Shown one piece after another: positions 33,318 through 43,391 of a DNA stretch of 64,000 nt; position 1 is the first letter of the stretch; the number at the start of each line of letters is the position of its first letter. Source of the DNA: Longimicrobiales bacterium (GTDB taxonomy: Bacteria > Gemmatimonadota > Gemmatimonadetes > Longimicrobiales > Gaopeijiaceae); NCBI GenBank assembly GCA_965198065.1, contig CBDAON010000004.1, positions 768,001 through 832,000 of the forward strand, in the 5' to 3' direction. The position numbers and the translations under genes are program-made. The notes under the pieces are model-generated. The model did no database searches. It was not told the DNA's origin and saw only the letters and a list, made by a program, of their open reading frames with translations.

Positions 33318-34678
33318 CTACCCTTCCCGCTTCAGCGAAAACTTCTCGATCTTCTTATAAAGGTTCGAGCGCGGCATGTCGAGTGCCCTCGCGGTCTCCG
33401 AAACGTTCCAATCGAATTCGCGGAGCTTCCGGAGGAGGAACAGCCTCTCCGACCGGTCCTTGAAGTCCTGGAATCTGCCGGAGCGCATGAGCTCCGATCC
33501 GAGGCCGGCGTCCTCGTTCCCTCCCGCCACCAGGGCGTCCACGTCGGACGAGGTGATCCGATCGGACGGCGAGAGGATGAGGAGGCGCTCGACCGTGTTC
33601 CGAAGCTCCCTGGCATTTCCCGGCCACTCGAGGTCCTGGAGGCGAGACACGGCCTCGCGGGTCAGCTCTCGGGCCGGGAGCCCGTCGCGCTCCGTCATCA
33701 TGGCGACGAAGTGAGATACCAGGACGGGAATGTCCTCGCGGCGGTCGCGAAGGGGGGGGATGTGGGTCGGGACCACGTTCAGTCGATAGAAGAGGTCCTC
33801 GCGAAAGCGGCCCTCCTCGATCTCCGTGGCTGGGTCCTTGTTCGTGGCCGAGACCACGCGAACGTCCACGTCGCGAGCCCTCTGCCCGCCGACGCGAGTG
33901 ACCTGCCCCTCCTCAAGCGCGCGGAGAACCTTGGCCTGTGCCGCCAGCGACATGTCGCCGACCTCATCGAGGAAGAGCGTGCCCTCGTGTCCCTGCTCGA
34001 ACTTCCCCGCACGATCCTGGACCGCCCCGTGAACGACCCCTTCATGTGCCCGAAGAGCTCGGACTCGATCAGCTCCGATGGGATCGCCGCGCAGTTCACC
34101 TCCACGAACGGTCGAGAAGCCCGGCGCGACAGTCGGTGGATGGCCCTCGCCACGAGCTCCTTCCCGGTCCCGTTCTCCCCCGTGATCAGCACACGGGCGT
34201 CCGTGGGGGCCACCTTTTCGATGCGGTCCAGAACCCGCCGGATCGCTGCAGACTCACCCACGATCCGATGGCGAAGCTCCACCTCCGACTGGAGCTCGGC
34301 GACCGATTCGGTGAGACCGCGCACCTTCAGCGCGTTTCTGAGCGTGACGATCAGACGGTCGGTGTCGAGGGGCTTCTCGAGGAAGTCGTACGCCCCCCGT
34401 CGGGTCGCCTCGAGCGCCGTGTCGATCGTCCCGTGACCCGAGATCATGACGACCTGCGCCCGGGGTGCCAGCTCGCGCAGGCGGCCCAGAGCCTCGACCC
34501 CGTCCATCTCGGACATCTTGACGTCCAGGAACACTACATCGGGCGCTTCCGCGCGGACCGCCTCCAGTCCCTCGGCTCCGGATGCCGCGGTCACGACCTC
34601 GTGCCCCTCGTACTCGAAGAGCTGTCTCAGGACGTCGCGAATCGATTCCTCGTCGTCGACGATGAGGAGGCGAGCCAT
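33318..34678 (-). CDS. Sigma54-dependent response regulator (NtrC/NtrX family) with one frameshift near 34025-34028, probably a sequence error
   Basis: Receiver domain, [22 protein letters not shown]. Adding one G restores [21 protein letters not shown], then [17 protein letters not shown] and a Fis-type HTH. Confidence 0.9.
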
Positions 34679-35414: not shown

Positions 35415-35616
35415 CGAACGGGGCATGGTGCGCGCGGCCGGCGATAATCGGTCGAGCGCAGCCAGGAAGCCGGCGTAATTCCGGCGCGGCCCCGCCACTG
35501 TGAGAGGCCCGGCCCCATCTGTGGGGATCCGGAATGGGCCCGCTCGACGAACCACTGGGACCTCGGTCCCGGGAAGGTGAGCGGCGCCGCCTCGAGCCAG
35601 GAGACCGCCCCGTTCG
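35415..35616 (+). promoter_or_regulatory. Cobalamin (AdoCbl-class) riboswitch
   Basis: Perfect P1 CGAACGGGGC/GCCCCGTTCG; core AGGAAGCCGGCGTAATTCCGGCGCGGCCCCGCCACTGTGA; CCACTGGGA...CCGGGAAGG; B12 box GAGCCAGGAGACC. Sits upstream of a TonB receptor. Confidence 0.95.
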
Positions 35617-35848
35617 TGCCCGACAGCAGCCCTTCGAGGGAGGGCGCGCGGGCGTCCGGACCTCGGCGTCCCGGAGCGGCCCGTTCCCCGCAAGGGAGAC
35701 GGGCCGATTTGTTTCACGCACCTCTCTTGGCCGCATTTCAGGCTCCCCGCCGGGAGCGCCGGTTCGACCTCGGTGCTCTCCGTCCTCGGCGTGCGCTGTC
35801 CCCGGCAGTATCGACAGCCTACTACCCCCCAAACCGAGGCCTTGCCCC

Positions 35849-37907
35849 ATGAGTCAGACGATCCTGCCCGCGCGCCCCCCGCGAATCCCGCGGGCCCCTA
35901 GCGCCCCGATCCTTTCCGAGATCCTCGCCGGAGCCCTCCTCTCCCTTGCTGCTCTCGTCTCGAACCCGCCGGGACTCCGCGGACAGGAGCCCACGGGTGG
36001 GCCCGACGACCCGTTCCTCCTTCCACGCGTCGTCGTGAGCGCGACGCGGGTGCCGATCGAGTGGGACCGGCTCCCCACGCCGGTCTCGGTGTTGACCGGA
36101 GCCAGAATTCGCAGGCTCGGGATTCGGACTGTCGGCGATGCGCTCCGAAGCGTTCCAGGGCTCCACGTCTTCCGCTCCGCCTCCGCTGGATCCCAGACGT
36201 CGGTGTTCGTGCGCGGGGGCGAGAGCGACTACGTGAAGGTCCTCGTGGACGGCGTTCCGGTGAACGAAGCGGGAGGCGCGATCGACTTCGCCGACCTCTC
36301 GACGGACCAGGTCGAGCGCATCGAGGTAGTGCGGGGGCCGGCAAGCGTCCTCTACGGGTCCGATGCCGTGTCAGGCGTCATCCAGATCTTTACCCGAAGG
36401 GGCCGCGGCGAGCCTCGGCTCGAGGCCACCGTTTCCGGTGGAATCGGCGAGCGCCGGCTGGACGATGGAACTCACGCGGTGATGGAGGCCGAGGCTTCCC
36501 TGACGGGCTCGACAGACGCGCTCTCCTATTCGATCGGCGGAGGCCGCTCGTGGAGCGGTGGCACCTATCCACTAAACAACGAGAACGAGCTGAACACTGT
36601 GAGCGGCCGCCTCGGCTGGAGCGACGGGGGGACTGCCGCGGTCGCGCTCGCGACCCGGTTCGGGGACGGCGAGTTCCGGTTCCCGACCGATTTGGCGGGA
36701 AACCTCGCCGACGATAACCAGCGTGCCGATCGCCGGAGCTGGACGACGTCCCTTCTCGCCCGTCGCCGGCTGAGTCCTCGTGTCGAAGCCGAGCTCCAGC
36801 TGGGCTTGGCCGACCGCGAACAAATCTCCCGTGACGAACCGGACGGACCAGACGACACGAGGGGCTTTTTCGCCTCGGTCTATGATTCCGAGGTCCAACG
36901 GAGCTCGGCCGACCTGCGTGTGACGACCTTGCTCGACGGAGCCTCGGTCACGATCGGCGGAGCCTTCGAGCGGGCGACGGGTGACATCGCGTACAGCTCC
37001 GACAGCGAGTTTGGGGAGTCCGAAGCATCCGCGGACTTCGAGCGGTCGAACGCGGCCGGCTACCTCGAGGTGCTCGCCGCACCGCTCGCGGGCGTCCAGG
37101 CGACCCTGGGTGCTCGGATGGACGACAACGAGACGTTCGGGAGCTTCGACACGTACAGAGTCGGCGTGTCTTGGAGCGCCTCGCCGGGCATTCGCGTCCG
37201 GGGTGCCCTCGGGCGCGCGTTCCGTGAGCCCACGTTCGCAGAGAATTTCGGGAGCGGCTTCGCCGACAACGGGAACCCCGATCTGGTTCCCGAGCGGACG
37301 CGGAGCTGGGAGGTCGGGCTAGAGGGAGCCCTCGGTCCGGTCGTCCTCTCCGGCACGTGGTTCGATCAGCACTTCCGCGACCTCATCCAGTATACGTTCG
37401 TCACGAGCGACCCAGCCGACCCCAATTACATGAACGTGGGGCGCGCGAAGGCGTCCGGTCTCGAGGTCGCGGCCGAGGGTGGATGGGGCCCGATCGCGCT
37501 GAACGCATCCTATATGTATCTGGACACGGAGGTCGTGGATCCGGGGCTCGCGACCGACGCTACGTTCGTCCAGGGAGAGCCGCTCCTCAGGCGCCCCGCG
37601 AGTTCGGGCTCTTTGTCGCTCGGTCTGGGCCACGACCGGGGGAACGTCGGAGCGGTCGTGAGCCTGGTCGGAGGGCGCGAGGACGTAGATTTTGGCGCGG
37701 GCTTCCCCGCCCCTCGGGTTACGCTCGGGAGCTACGCTACTGTCGACGTCTCGGCGGACTACCGGCTCCCCGATCTCGGCCGCGCCGGCGCACGCTTCGT
37801 CCTCAAGCTCGAGAACCTCCTAGATGCCGACTACGAGGGGAATCGTGGGTTTTCCCGCGCCGGGGCGGGTCGTACGCCTCGGCCTGGCGGTTGAGATGGG
37901 AGGATGA
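35849..37907 (+). CDS. btuB: TonB-dependent vitamin B12 receptor (BtuB-like) with one apparent +1 frameshift at 37837-37840
   Basis: Signal peptide, VVVSATR, plug FVRGGESDYVKVLVDGVPVN, ERIEVVRGPASVLYGSDAVSGVIQI, GNPDL.PE, LLRRP. Removing one G gives ...GFPAPGRVVRLGLAVEMGG* with TGA overlapping the next ATG. Confidence 0.88.
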
Positions 37908-38461
37908 GGAGCCTCCTCGTGGTGACCGGAACGATCCCGGCCGTCGCGGCGACGCGTGTGCTCCCTCATCCCATGAACTTCACATCGGTGGGGGCGATGG
38001 CTCTGTTCGGGGGCGCGTGCGTCCGTCCGCGCGCACTCGGGTTCCTCGTGCCACTGGCCGCTATTATCGCGGGAGACGTCGCCATGGTTGGGCGTCGGGG
38101 GACTGGTCGCTGACCTTCCACCCGCTCGTTCCCGCGGTGTACGGGAGCTTTGCGCCCGTGACGTGGATCGGGACGGGCCTCGCGGATCGGCGGACGTTCG
38201 CCCCGATCGCCGTCGGGACGCTCGCGGGCTCCGCTCTCTACTTCGTCGTTGGCGACCTGGGCCCTTCTCACGACGTATGCGAAGACCTGGGAAGGGCTGG
38301 TAGCCTGTTACGCAGCCGGCCTTCCCTACTTGCTGAACACCGTCGCGGGCGACGCGCTTTACGCTGCGATCCTCTTCGGGTCGCTCTCGTGGCTCGAGGG
38401 ACGCTTCCCCTCGCTCCGCACGACGCTCGCGCCGGGGCGTCACAGACCGAGGACGTCGTGA
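37904..38461 (+). CDS. Small multi-TM putative transporter (DUF6580-like), broken into three frames (about 38086 and 38248)
   Basis: RVLPHPMNFTSVGAMALFGGA, hydrophobic middle (FHPLVPAVYGSF...GTLAGSALYFVV), then YAKTWEGLVACYAAGLPYLLNTVAGDALY. Family recognised from memory. Confidence 0.72.
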
Positions 38462-38504
38462 GCTTGAGCGCTCCCACGTACGGAACGCCGGGAACGGAGG
38501 GCGT

Positions 38505-39579
38505 GTGAGGATCGTGTCCCTGCTCCCAAGCGCTACTGAGATGATCTGCGGCGTGGGGCGGGGACAAGACCTCGTGGGGGTCACGCACGAGTGCGACTTC
38601 CCGCCCCGCGTGCGCGGGCTCCCCGCCGTAACGAACACGCTCATCCCTTCGGACACGTCGAGCCGCGAGATCGACACCCTCGTGCGAGAGCGCCTCACGA
38701 AGAGCCGCTTCTCTCTACACGCTGGACCTCCCCGTGCTCGAGGCGCTCCGGCCGAACCTGATCGTCACCCAAACGCTCTGCCAGGTCTGCGCGGTCGCGG
38801 AGGACGAGGTTCGGGCCGCCGCATGTGGGCTCCCTGGTAAGCCGGAGGTCCTGAACCTCGAGCCGGAAAGGCTCGAGGACGTGCTCAGGGCGATCCGCGA
38901 GGTGGGGTGGGCGACTGGCGCCACGCGGGTGGCCGACGCGTTCGTCGCGAGCCTCGAGGCTCGGGTGGAGCGCGTGGCCGAGGGCGGGGCACGGATCCGA
39001 GAGCGCCCGCGCGTTCTCCTCTTGGAATGGCTGGATCCTCCCTTCTCGTCCGGGCACTGGAACCCCCAGCTCGTCCGGGTCGCCGGGGGGATCGAAGTGC
39101 TCGGGCGCGAGGGCGAACGGTCGCGAACGGTCTCGTGGGAGGAGGTGATCGCCTCCGGCCCCGAGGCGGTGATCGTGTCATGCTGCGGGTACGATCTCGA
39201 GCGCACCGTCCGCGATCTTCCCATCCTCGAGTCCGTTCCCGGGTGGGCCCGGACGCCGGCGGCGAGATCGGGACGCGTCTACTTGGTGGACGGATCCCAG
39301 TACTTCAGCCGGCCCGGACCGCGGCTCGTGGACAGCCTGGAGATTTTCGCCCACGCCCTGCACCCGACGGTGCACCCGGCACCCACGGCCTGGTCCCGGG
39401 CGGTCAGACGGGAGCCTGCCGCCGCCGGGCTGTGCAGGTCGTGCCGCCACCGGCGAGACGTCTCGTCCAGGCGGGGGAGCCGCTTCGTCTTGTGTCTGCG
39501 CTCTCGCGACGATCCTGCCTTTCCGAAGTATCCCGAGCTCCCGGTCACGCGCTGTTCGGGATTCGAGCTCAGGGCCTGA
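38505..39579 (+). CDS. BtuF/TroA-like cobalamin-binding protein with no signal peptide and a C-terminal four-Cys domain; one frameshift near 38705-38712
   Basis: MRIVSLLPSATE, GVTHECDFP, LIVTQTLCQVCAV, EWLDPPF..GHW.P, CCGYD, FSRPGPRLVD, then GLCRSC...C...C. Confidence 0.82.
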
Positions 39580-39658: not shown

Positions 39659-40528
39659 TCAGCGCATCATTGCGTAGATGAGGTAGTTCACGCCGAGCTG
39701 ATACGCGGCGTTCGTGGGATCGAGCCCGAAACGTCCTTCGGGAAACTCCCAGTACTCCGCCAGGTCGGAGTTGTGGTTAGCGAGGACCATCACCCTCTTC
39801 GTCGGATCGTTGTCCTCGTACATCGCCTGGTAGTTGGGAATCACTCGAACCAGCGGGTGCGGGACGTAGATGTCCTCAACCACCCAATACGACCGGAAGA
39901 TCGGGTGAGACGGGTCGAGCTCGAACCACACGTATTCGGGGACCGCCCTCCGCATTTGGGCGGCCATGTTGTCCCACTGCTGTAGCTCGAAGTCATCAAA
40001 GATCAGGAAGCCGCCCTTGAGCAGGAACTCGCGCAGGTTCAGAGCCCCCTCGTCCGACACGCTCCAGTATCCCGGCTCCGACATGTAGAGGATCGGATAC
40101 TGAAAGATCCTCGGATCCTCCAGGTCCAGGACGTTGGTCCCCTCGGTGTTCGTGCGAAGGTGCGTGAACTCGTCCACGATGAACTGGAGGTTCCGATCCG
40201 CATACGGGTAGTCGTGGTTCCACGCCGAGCTTCCCCCGAAGCCGCGGAACCCGCCGCCACCTCCATACCGGACGCGAGTAAAGGTGAAATACCCGTTGTA
40301 GGGAACCTGATAGAGAGACTGCGCCCCGGACTGGGCGTCGAGCGGGCTCGGGCCGAGCGGACCGTTCCTGAGCGGACCCGGGCTGCCCGGGACCTTGGAC
40401 TCTCGAGGTCCCGTGCCCAACGATCCCTCGGGCACCGGCGTGTCCGTCGGGCCGGCCGCGAGGGCCCAGGTGGCCGCGACGACGAGTCCCGGGACCATCA
40501 AGTGCGGAAGCCGCGGGCGGAACATCAT
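39659..40528 (-). CDS. DUF4159 domain-containing exported protein
   Basis: Signal peptide, FTFTRVRY, WNHDYPYADRN, YPILYMSEPG, GGFLIFDDF, SDLAEYWE, GVNYLIYA. Confidence 0.8.
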   Translation of the reverse strand: MMFRPRLPHLMVPGLVVAATWALAAGPTDTPVPEGSLGTGPRESKVPGSPGPLRNGPLGPSPLDAQSGAQSLYQVPYNGYFTFTRVRYGGGGGFRGFGGSSAWNHDYPYADRNLQFIVDEFTHLRTNTEGTNVLDLEDPRIFQYPILYMSEPGYWSVSDEGALNLREFLLKGGFLIFDDFELQQWDNMAAQMRRAVPEYVWFELDPSHPIFRSYWVVEDIYVPHPLVRVIPNYQAMYEDNDPTKRVMVLANHNSDLAEYWEFPEGRFGLDPTNAAYQLGVNYLIYAMMR

Positions 40529-41837: not shown

Positions 41838-43391
41838 TCACACCGCCCGGTACTGGATCGCCTCCGCGAGATGCTCTTCGCGGATGCCGGCCGCCCCGTC
41901 CAGGTCCGCGACCGTCCGCGCGACCTTGAGCACTCGGTGGATCCCTCTAGGCGACAGGCAGAGCCGATCGCACGCGTCCTCGAGCAACCGCCCGCCGGCC
42001 ACGTCCACCGCGCACCACTTCCTCAGCTGGCTGGGGGTGAGCGTCGCGTTACAGAGCCCCTTCCCGCCCGTGCCGACGTCTCGCGGCGTCCTACCTGCGG
42101 TCGCTCGCTGCCGATCCAGCTGGAGATCCCGCGCCGCACGCACGCGCTCGCGCACCGTTGTGGAGGACTCGCCGGCCGGAGCTCGGTGGAGCTCGGAAAA
42201 CGAGAGCGCTGGGACCTCGATCTGAATGTCGATCCGATCGCGAAGTGGGCCGGAGATCCGTGAGCGGGTAACGCGCGACCTGAGTGGGATCGCACGTGCA
42301 GCTCCGCCTAGCGTCCCCGAGATGGCCGCACTCGCACGGGTTCATCGCCGCGACGAGCATGAAACGAGAAGGGAAGCCCAGACGCTCCCTCGCACGCACG
42401 ACCGAGATCCATCCGTCCTCCATCGGCTGTCGGAGGGCCTCGAGGACACCCCTCGAGAACTCGGGCAGCTCGTCGAGAAGAGCACGCCGTGATGCGCGAG
42501 GCTCACCTCCCCGGGGCGAAGCGGAGACCCTCCCCCCGCAAGCCCCGCCCGCGAGACCGTGTGATGGGGGGCCCGAAATGGGCGGCAGCGGATCAGAGCC
42601 TCTCCCGGCGGGAGGAGCCCAGCAACCGAATGAATGGTCGTCACATCGAGGGACTCGTCCGGGGTGAGCGGGGGGAGGATCCCCCCGAGGCGACGGGCCA
42701 GCATCGTCTTCCCCGAGCCGGGCGGGCCGAGGAGGAGGACGTTGTGTCCCCCGGCGGCCGCCACCTCGAGCGCCCGCTTGACGCCGGCGTGCCCCCGGAC
42801 GTCGGTCAGATCCTGCCCATCCTCGGGTGACTCGGCCAGGAGATCCGCAATACGGACTGTGACGGCCGGCGCCCCCCGCTCCCCGACGAGCTCGGCCACG
42901 ACCTCCGCGAGCGAATGCGCTCCGATCACACGCACGGTCCCGGCCCCGGCCGCGGCTTCCCTGGCATTGGCCCGCGGCACGACGAGCGAGCGCACGCCCT
43001 CGGCGCGGCAGGCCGCCGCTACGGCCAGCGTGCCCCGCACGGGGCGAAGCTCGCCGTTCAGGCCGAGCTCCCCGATGAACGCGCGTCCGCGTACGGCATC
43101 GAGCGGGAGGTGTCCGGCGCCGGCCAAAAGCCCTAGGGCTAGCGGCAGGTCGAACCCGCTTCCCTCCTTCCGGAGGTCCGCTGGGGCCAGGTTGATCGTG
43201 ATTCGGCGCGGCGGTATCCGGTAACCCGCCGCCTGAAGGGCCGCCCGAACACGGTCACGCCCCTCCCGCACGGCCCCTTGCGGGAGGCCCACGATAGAGA
43301 TGGACGGGAGCCCGTCCGCCACGCTCACCTCGACGCGGACCAGCACGCACTCCACCCCGACGAGGACCCCGGAGAGGACCTCCGCGAGCAC
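41838..43391 (-). CDS. comM: YifB/ComM Mg-chelatase-like AAA+ ATPase with two frameshifts (about 42477 and 42266-42268)
   Basis: NLAPADLRKEG..FDLP, GELGLNG, GPPGSGKTMLA, PFRAPHH, PGEVSLAHHGVLF(LDE), AAMNPCECG, ISGPL.DRID, ARTVADL. Confidence 0.9.

Follow-up and report, generated by a model that had tools for sequence, protein, structure and literature searches.

How does vitamin B12 cross the inner membrane of a bacterium whose riboswitch-controlled receptor operon contains neither a permease gene nor an ATPase gene? The question is raised by a locus in a 64,000-nucleotide stretch of DNA (the window) from a Longimicrobiales bacterium, where a cobalamin riboswitch precedes genes for a BtuB-like receptor, a membrane protein of the DUF6580 family (PF20221) and a BtuF-like protein (PF01497) with four conserved cysteine residues. 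An earlier note had proposed an uptake system without BtuCD, in which the DUF6580 protein acts as inner-membrane carrier and passes cobalamin to the third protein in the cytoplasm. We arrive at another answer for this organism, which probably imports B12 by the classical route, i.e., through this receptor and a btuFCD operon located elsewhere in the genome, with its DUF6580 gene broken and the family probably serving as a redundant solitary carrier in other lineages. The operon is arranged as follows:

35465 to 35605, plus strand: cobalamin riboswitch aptamer in the btuB leader (Rfam match to RF00174, model positions 47-167)
35849 to 37907, plus strand: BtuB-like TonB-dependent receptor (PF07715 and PF00593)
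37904 to 38461, plus strand: DUF6580 (PF20221) pseudogene in three frame pieces (profile positions 6-65, 65-110 and 108-161)
38505 to 39579, plus strand: intact signal-less BtuF-fold protein of about 357 amino acids (PF01497), with a histidine and four cysteines (HECD, CxxC, CG)
39659 to 40528, minus strand: convergent DUF4159 gene (domain match), the operon's end and outside the system

In an Rfam scan, the riboswitch scored 62.4 bits (E = 4.7e-13, gathering cut-off 31.5) and was the only Rfam family in the window. A second RF00174 copy was not found across the host genome (G000; 3.05 Mb, 87.6% complete, the completeness at which all negatives given here for this genome hold). The three genes downstream are co-oriented, in full agreement with the earlier note. 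The receptor, a plug plus a 22-strand barrel under a B12 riboswitch, has two B12 receptor models as its best NCBIfam matches, both at scores below the equivalog cut-offs (TIGR01779, 272/599.7 bits; NF007926, 190/836 bits), and is 40-44% identical to riboswitch-led receptors from five relatives. Once the extra base at 37841 is removed, the btuB stop codon (37905-37907) overlaps the DUF6580 start codon at 37904, as had been anticipated, and the operon indeed closes at the convergent gene with no permease or ATPase gene inside. Two relatives deviate from this layout: in G248 (L037) an insertion of about 1.4 kb splits btuB, and in G194 (L035) there is no btuB between riboswitch and DUF6580.

The window contains no intact DUF6580 reading frame. 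Two of the three pieces exceed the PF20221 cut-off (56.7 and 54.4 bits), one base is lost near 38085 and eight bases near 38248-38251, and translation ends after 69 codons at a premature stop (38111-38113). The second loss deletes an asparagine (N136) present in 105/105 aligned members, and serine replaces a proline (P46) that is likewise present in 105/105, the alignment representing mostly one close clade. No other DUF6580 copy was found in the genome.

The nature of the frameshifts was clarified by comparing the region with contigs from four studies (X1, X2, X4 and X7). X1, X2 and X4 are each one base shorter at 37841 in btuB and at 38709/38710 in the gene for the BtuF-like protein, and the frameshifts in these two genes are thus assembly errors. 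The repair of frames from reads suggested in the earlier note therefore succeeded for these genes but not for DUF6580, where contigs from all four studies show not a single indel and assembly error is ruled out as cause of the breaks. X2 and X7 run across the break near 38085, and X1, X2, X4 and X7 across that near 38250. One X2 contig covers the entire DUF6580 gene, with all of its 11 gap letters falling elsewhere, and an X7 contig covers both breaks and is identical to the window there. X2 and X4 show about 17 to 22 differences from the window and therefore represent other strains; X1 or X7 may stem from the window's own source sample. A sister lineage (about 95% identity, two seawater runs) carries one additional base at 38085 and eight at 38248-38251 and keeps the frame open. 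The window lineage thus lost 1 + 8 bases, both frameshifts are real, and the window's DUF6580 gene is a pseudogene, whose product would fail a B12 carrier test. The sister contigs X12 and X14 align with the window only from 38058 on, although both reach further; the 5' end of DUF6580 (37904-38057) and the DNA upstream are more than 20% different, and recombination within the gene may have left a junction near 38058.

A search for FecCD permeases revealed a second locus outside the window:

G000:C4:1675225-1677964: btuF-btuC-btuD operon

It encodes a binding lipoprotein with a lipobox, an FecCD permease and an ATPase, all in open frames. The statement that BtuCD is missing thus holds for the receptor operon and fails for the genome; btuCD elsewhere had itself been named in the earlier note as the finding that would explain uptake without a new carrier, and an intact btuFCD is what the genome contains. 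The two best NCBIfam models for the permease are BtuC (NF007081, NF003001), and NF002894 ranks second for the binding protein, behind a generic model. The three proteins are 45, 58 and 58% identical to BtuF, BtuC and BtuD from a riboswitch-led operon in G051. Among 39 chosen relatives, 30 have a btuFCD orthologue, and 16 of these have RF00174 on the same strand, at most about 1.2 kb ahead of it. A btuC orthologue occurs, mostly in single copy, in 221 of the 251 genomes of the phylum sample (a tally that counts G210 as one row; the family-level counts are without it). From its gene content, the organism is predicted to need external B12: it has two B12-binding (PF02310) proteins, one of them MetH-sized, plus PduO, and MetE, CbiC, EcfT (PF02361) and DUF71 were not found. 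Since outside B12 would be required and DUF6580 is dead, the ATP-binding cassette (ABC) operon is the probable inner-membrane route here. In G001, a member of the same genus (1.6 Mb, 92% complete), a btuC orthologue is present with 81% identity, and riboswitch, DUF6580 and four-Cys gene were all not found.

Intact members of the DUF6580 family tell a different story. DUF6580 exceeded the cut-off in 16 of the 251 genomes of the phylum sample. Within family f1 (37 genomes), a btuC orthologue is missing in 9 of the 11 DUF6580-positive genomes, as opposed to 0/26 of the negative ones; each of the nine carries a full-length DUF6580, all 26 DUF6580-negative genomes retain btuC, and two genomes carry both. 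Class-wide, btuC is missing in 9/15 positive versus 5/218 negative genomes. All nine btuC-less genomes encode two to three B12-binding proteins and six are single contigs. EcfT and CbiC were not found in any of the nine, and two of them (G177 and G250) hold distant FecCD paralogues of 30-34% identity. A comparable pattern is seen in the planctomycetes, the phylum of G300, where FecCD is missing in 4/5 DUF6580 carriers versus 10/96 other genomes (3/4 versus 10/96 with the seed excluded, Fisher p 0.0065). As relatives that lost the pump all keep the carrier intact, DUF6580 is a probable stand-in importer. The family also recurs near B12 riboswitches, a count for which the earlier note had asked: a riboswitch lies upstream in 10 of the 17 DUF6580-positive relatives of the window's phylum, and in several phyla btuB is the gene immediately before DUF6580.

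The predicted structure of the intact G006 protein (pLDDT 89) adopts the fold of energy-coupling factor (ECF) S-components and is closest to BtuM (Z 14.3, rmsd 3.5-3.8 over 162-164 residues), followed by ECF S-components at Z 12.1 downward; these Z values derive from a re-alignment of Foldseek's top 1000, and in Foldseek itself the match to BtuM has TM values of 0.61/0.69 and an E-value that is not significant. Sequence identity to BtuM in the structural alignment is 15-16%, and no match to PDB was obtained with a single DUF6580 sequence or a narrow profile. According to passages of Rempel et al. 2018 (PMC6072759), BtuM can by itself support the uptake of B12, and its Cys80 in loop L3 binds cobalt; structures of the Thiobacillus denitrificans protein are available (PDB 8OVV, 8C7P). 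DUF6580 resembles BtuM in its six-helix S-component fold (best match), the btuB neighbour, the missing ECF module and one conserved cysteine. It differs in that no sequence similarity was detected, it is often accompanied by a cytoplasmic BtuF-fold protein and DUF71, and the copy in the window is broken. Furthermore, its only conserved cysteine (104/105) resides in a short helix before the last membrane helix, and the loop equivalent to BtuM L3 has no conserved cysteine. For this reason DUF6580 is not classed as BtuM and would at most work like it. Other ECF S-components (FolT, ThiT, BioY, RibU and PanT) share the fold at Z 8.7-12.1; they differ with respect to EcfT, which was not found in G000 or in 16/16 same-class DUF6580 carriers and was found in 2/5 planctomycete carriers. 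CbrT is a further ECF S-component; it is absent from the listed structures. An ECF partner for DUF6580 was rejected on the grounds of the same EcfT results, the search for an ECF module having been recommended in the earlier note. Taken together, the comparisons make it likely, if indirectly, that intact DUF6580 is a solitary B12 carrier able to take the place of BtuCD-F, as a variation on BtuM. The carrier role assigned to the membrane protein of the window thus falls for this copy, with its 69 codons, and is supported for the family by its BtuM-like fold and its complementarity to btuC.

The third gene of the operon is preceded by a ribosome-binding site, starts one residue ahead of the first strand and encodes neither signal peptide nor lipobox. 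The four-Cys family comprises 1,238 clusters at 50% identity (E up to 1e-30); in an alignment of 127 members, leaders never exceed 17 residues, those listed are not hydrophobic, and H30, C32, C94, C97 and C230 are kept in 116-126. A model of a relative's protein (pLDDT 96.6) shows the class III binding-protein fold, and a PDB profile search ranks Vibrio BtuF first. NF002894 gave 21.5/234 bits for an intact relative and no match for the window piece. HECD aligns beside Y50 and CxxC near W85 of E. coli BtuF (numbering offset inferred), described as cavity residues in passages of PMC5269720; the four cysteines may therefore line the cleft. Compared with the BtuB-BtuF-BtuCD system of E. coli and Vibrio, the organism shares a riboswitch-led BtuB-like receptor, an orthologous BtuF-C-D set in the second operon and the BtuF fold of the third gene product, whereas the latter deviates from BtuF by the missing signal peptide, the four conserved cysteines, an insertion of about 25 residues and the lack of a cognate permease. 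An intact four-Cys gene follows DUF6580 in 15/17 carriers, DUF71 separating the two in G018. The G186 copy has an internal deletion and no copy was found in G196, both genomes being without btuC, so that the carrier seems not to need this protein and a hand-off to it does not appear obligatory. In the window, the four-Cys gene is intact although the carrier gene is broken. In planctomycetes, FecCD is present in 19/24 genomes having the four-Cys family, which is therefore no substitute for the pump.

How would these parts act together? We propose that the DUF6580 and four-Cys pair was inserted behind btuB through gene transfer and that intact DUF6580, as a solitary carrier with S-component fold, would do the inner-membrane job of BtuCD-F. 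The two systems would be redundant, and lineages would then lose one of them: genera g6 and g59 as well as G186 lost btuFCD under this scheme, and the window lineage lost DUF6580. Less firmly, the four-Cys protein might act after import by either route and before PduO-type adenosylation, where thiols or a metal site in the cleft would take up or strip the cobalt ligand.

Several observations weigh against this reading. The nine btuC-less genomes are kin, seven belonging to one genus, joined by G214 and by G186, the sole btuC-less genome among 18 of its genus; p-values for the association of DUF6580 with btuC loss are therefore overstated, and the losses perhaps amount to two or three independent events. 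Both systems occur together in seven relatives (G019, G018, G248 and four of genus g86), and seven of the 17 DUF6580-positive genomes lack a nearby upstream riboswitch. All NCBIfam scores at the second locus stay under the cut-offs, and no riboswitch precedes btuFCD in this genome or in the nearest genera, which is why its assignment to B12 is based on orthology. The folds were predicted for relatives' proteins and not for the window's own, and the fold of the four-Cys protein ties heme-binding proteins (Z 25.2, 23.9) with BtuF (Z 23.5, 22.9). RF00174 lies within 4 kb, once in divergent orientation, in only six of the best 80 four-Cys loci in GTDB (chosen from at least 590 matches and biased toward the query). 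Finally, the genome is 87.6% complete.

The four-Cys protein is the less firm part of our reading, and we see roughly even chances that it is a cytoplasmic corrinoid-binding or processing protein. It is possible, if rather unlikely, that it is not B12-specific and binds a metal, an iron-sulfur cluster, heme or another cytoplasmic ligand, being only sometimes part of B12 operons. This would accommodate the 74 of the best 80 loci without RF00174 within 4 kb and their mixed, mostly unrelated neighbours (DUF6580 is directly upstream in six, DUF71 nearby in six), the tie with heme-binding proteins, the four g86 genomes with two copies, one of them in an unrelated context, and small Cys-rich domains that are fused or adjacent. 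One of the latter is found in the window:

39409 to 39576, plus strand: fused C-terminal Cys-rich domain (CxxCxH ... C ... YP.LPV..C), an unnamed family of 64-69 amino acids, otherwise a separate gene

It has no Pfam match and matches clusters of hypothetical proteins (score 0.96); the family is fused in sister L139 and encoded just downstream of the four-Cys gene in L110, L116 and L143. Further, P0382 contains a fused DUF5522, and L063 has a Cys_rich_CWC gene upstream, which suggests that small metal-binding partners recur beside the four-Cys protein. B12 specificity is favoured over a different ligand by contexts that recur over a quick tree: its 29 B12-context rows, a label that counts riboswitches as well as adjacency of DUF6580 or DUF71, need 11 changes, at least six of them forced by strong branches (duplicate loci, the broken G186 and G004 copies and matches under 190 profile columns were left out). 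The gene's neighbours moreover include riboswitch-led btuB, btuFCD (L070) and DUF71. The window protein is closest to L129/L130, where the order is btuB, DUF6580, DUF71, four-Cys gene.

We entertain a more far-reaching version tentatively and with considerable doubt: DUF6580 and the four-Cys protein would make up a mobile module that imports and processes B12 without ATP and displaces BtuFCD, the four-Cys protein being a binding-protein fold converted to a cytoplasmic, thiol-based corrinoid chaperone or decyanase and bacterial counterpart of CblC, and the window would represent the reverse outcome, with pump and processing protein kept and the carrier decayed. MMACHC/CblC chaperones handle B12 in the cytoplasm via a Co-S bond. 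They are possible functional analogues of the four-Cys protein; homology is not claimed. Three loci of genus g86 (L031, L032 and L033) have the DUF6580 and four-Cys pair behind a tRNA gene and without riboswitch, divergent from the starts of what we take to be an ArsR-methyltransferase-like and an SAH (S-adenosylhomocysteine) hydrolase-like gene; this pair looks like an integrated mobile cassette. In G004 (L047:4600-4960), riboswitch and btuB lead directly to a four-Cys gene of which an internal deletion has left just the two ends, and DUF6580 is missing; G004 belongs to the family of the window genome, and its locus is another copy of the module in decay.

A little less probable still is that intact DUF6580, under B12 control, carries or modifies something other than the complete cobalamin (cobinamide, a lower ligand or cobalt), and that btuC-less relatives use a B12 route we do not recognise. 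The fold is silent on the substrate, with folate, biotin and thiamine S-components following BtuM at Z 11-12, and neither a sequence match to BtuM nor a conserved cysteine in the loop of BtuM Cys80 points to cobalamin. This proposal is countered by the exact match to btuC loss in family f1 and by the place immediately after btuB that the gene takes in several phyla; import of cobalt to build the ring was rejected, as it would be pointless in carriers in which CbiC was not found.

We consider it improbable that the second-locus ABC operon carries heme or an iron chelate and that the organism has lost its sole inner-membrane B12 carrier or uses one unseen. The sub-cut-off scores, the missing riboswitch and the best model of the ATPase, the heme ATPase NF010068, would fit such a function. 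The orthologue is, however, mostly single-copy in 221/251 genomes of the phylum and riboswitch-led in 16/30 relatives, and the organism keeps a MetH-sized B12 enzyme while MetE was not found. Highly improbable is a working DUF6580 in this organism, made full length by recoding or encoded by an intact copy that the assembly lacks, which would take B12 across the inner membrane and pass it to the cytoplasmic protein, BtuCD being unneeded. The gene order with its overlap of btuB stop and DUF6580 start would fit, the losses total nine bases and leave the first and last pieces in the same frame, and the genome is incomplete. Against this, the stretch between the breaks contains two stops, recoding would have to occur twice at separate places, the invariant asparagine is gone, the only copy found is broken and btuFCD is intact. 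For the organism, we thus state that a probable classical route is accompanied by a decaying accessory module and that the finding of the earlier note as worded fails.

The either/or pattern of DUF6580 and btuC, which includes closed B12-needing genomes in which the ring-synthesis marker CbiC, BtuC and EcfT were all not found, makes DUF6580 a testable second solitary carrier, with the copies from G006, G135, G186 and G196 singled out as candidates. Many B12 auxotrophs possess BtuB and no known inner-membrane importer, as stated in passages of PMC6072759. The four-Cys family is labelled "cobalamin-binding protein" by some sources as though it were periplasmic; a cytoplasmic role, if true, would correct this and could supply a step that is missing between import and adenosylation. 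The DUF71-B12 subgroup of PF01902 was predicted in 2012 to be a B12-salvage enzyme clustering with B12 transport genes (de Crecy-Lagard et al., PMC3541065, in passages that mention neither DUF6580 nor a signal-less BtuF). DUF71 flanks the DUF6580 and four-Cys families in G018, L066, L068, L071, L075, L116 and L130, in contrast to the window's genome, where it was not found. In the open literature no paper naming DUF6580 was found, an older name being possible, and neither the text nor three supplements of PMC11109136 name it; the predicted transporter names btuT, U, V, X, Y and N in PMC3766115 could not be mapped to families. Literature searches, at the level of listings, turned up no paper on a BtuF family with four cysteines and without a signal peptide.

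Another membrane family, without a Pfam match, about 190 amino acids long and with a conserved cysteine (C..PFVA), occupies the same slot before the four-Cys gene (L075:2430-3020, L081:3397-3978, L111:3462-3986, L118:859-1383), in two Verrucomicrobiota behind riboswitch and btuB. In a profile comparison, a weak test with four sequences, it did not match DUF6580. The family is a candidate for another solitary carrier. Within the window, two further genes are read in two frames, 33318-34678, presumably a response regulator with a sigma-54-type ATPase, and 42091-43391, presumably a ComM-like ATPase, which fits scattered assembly indels.

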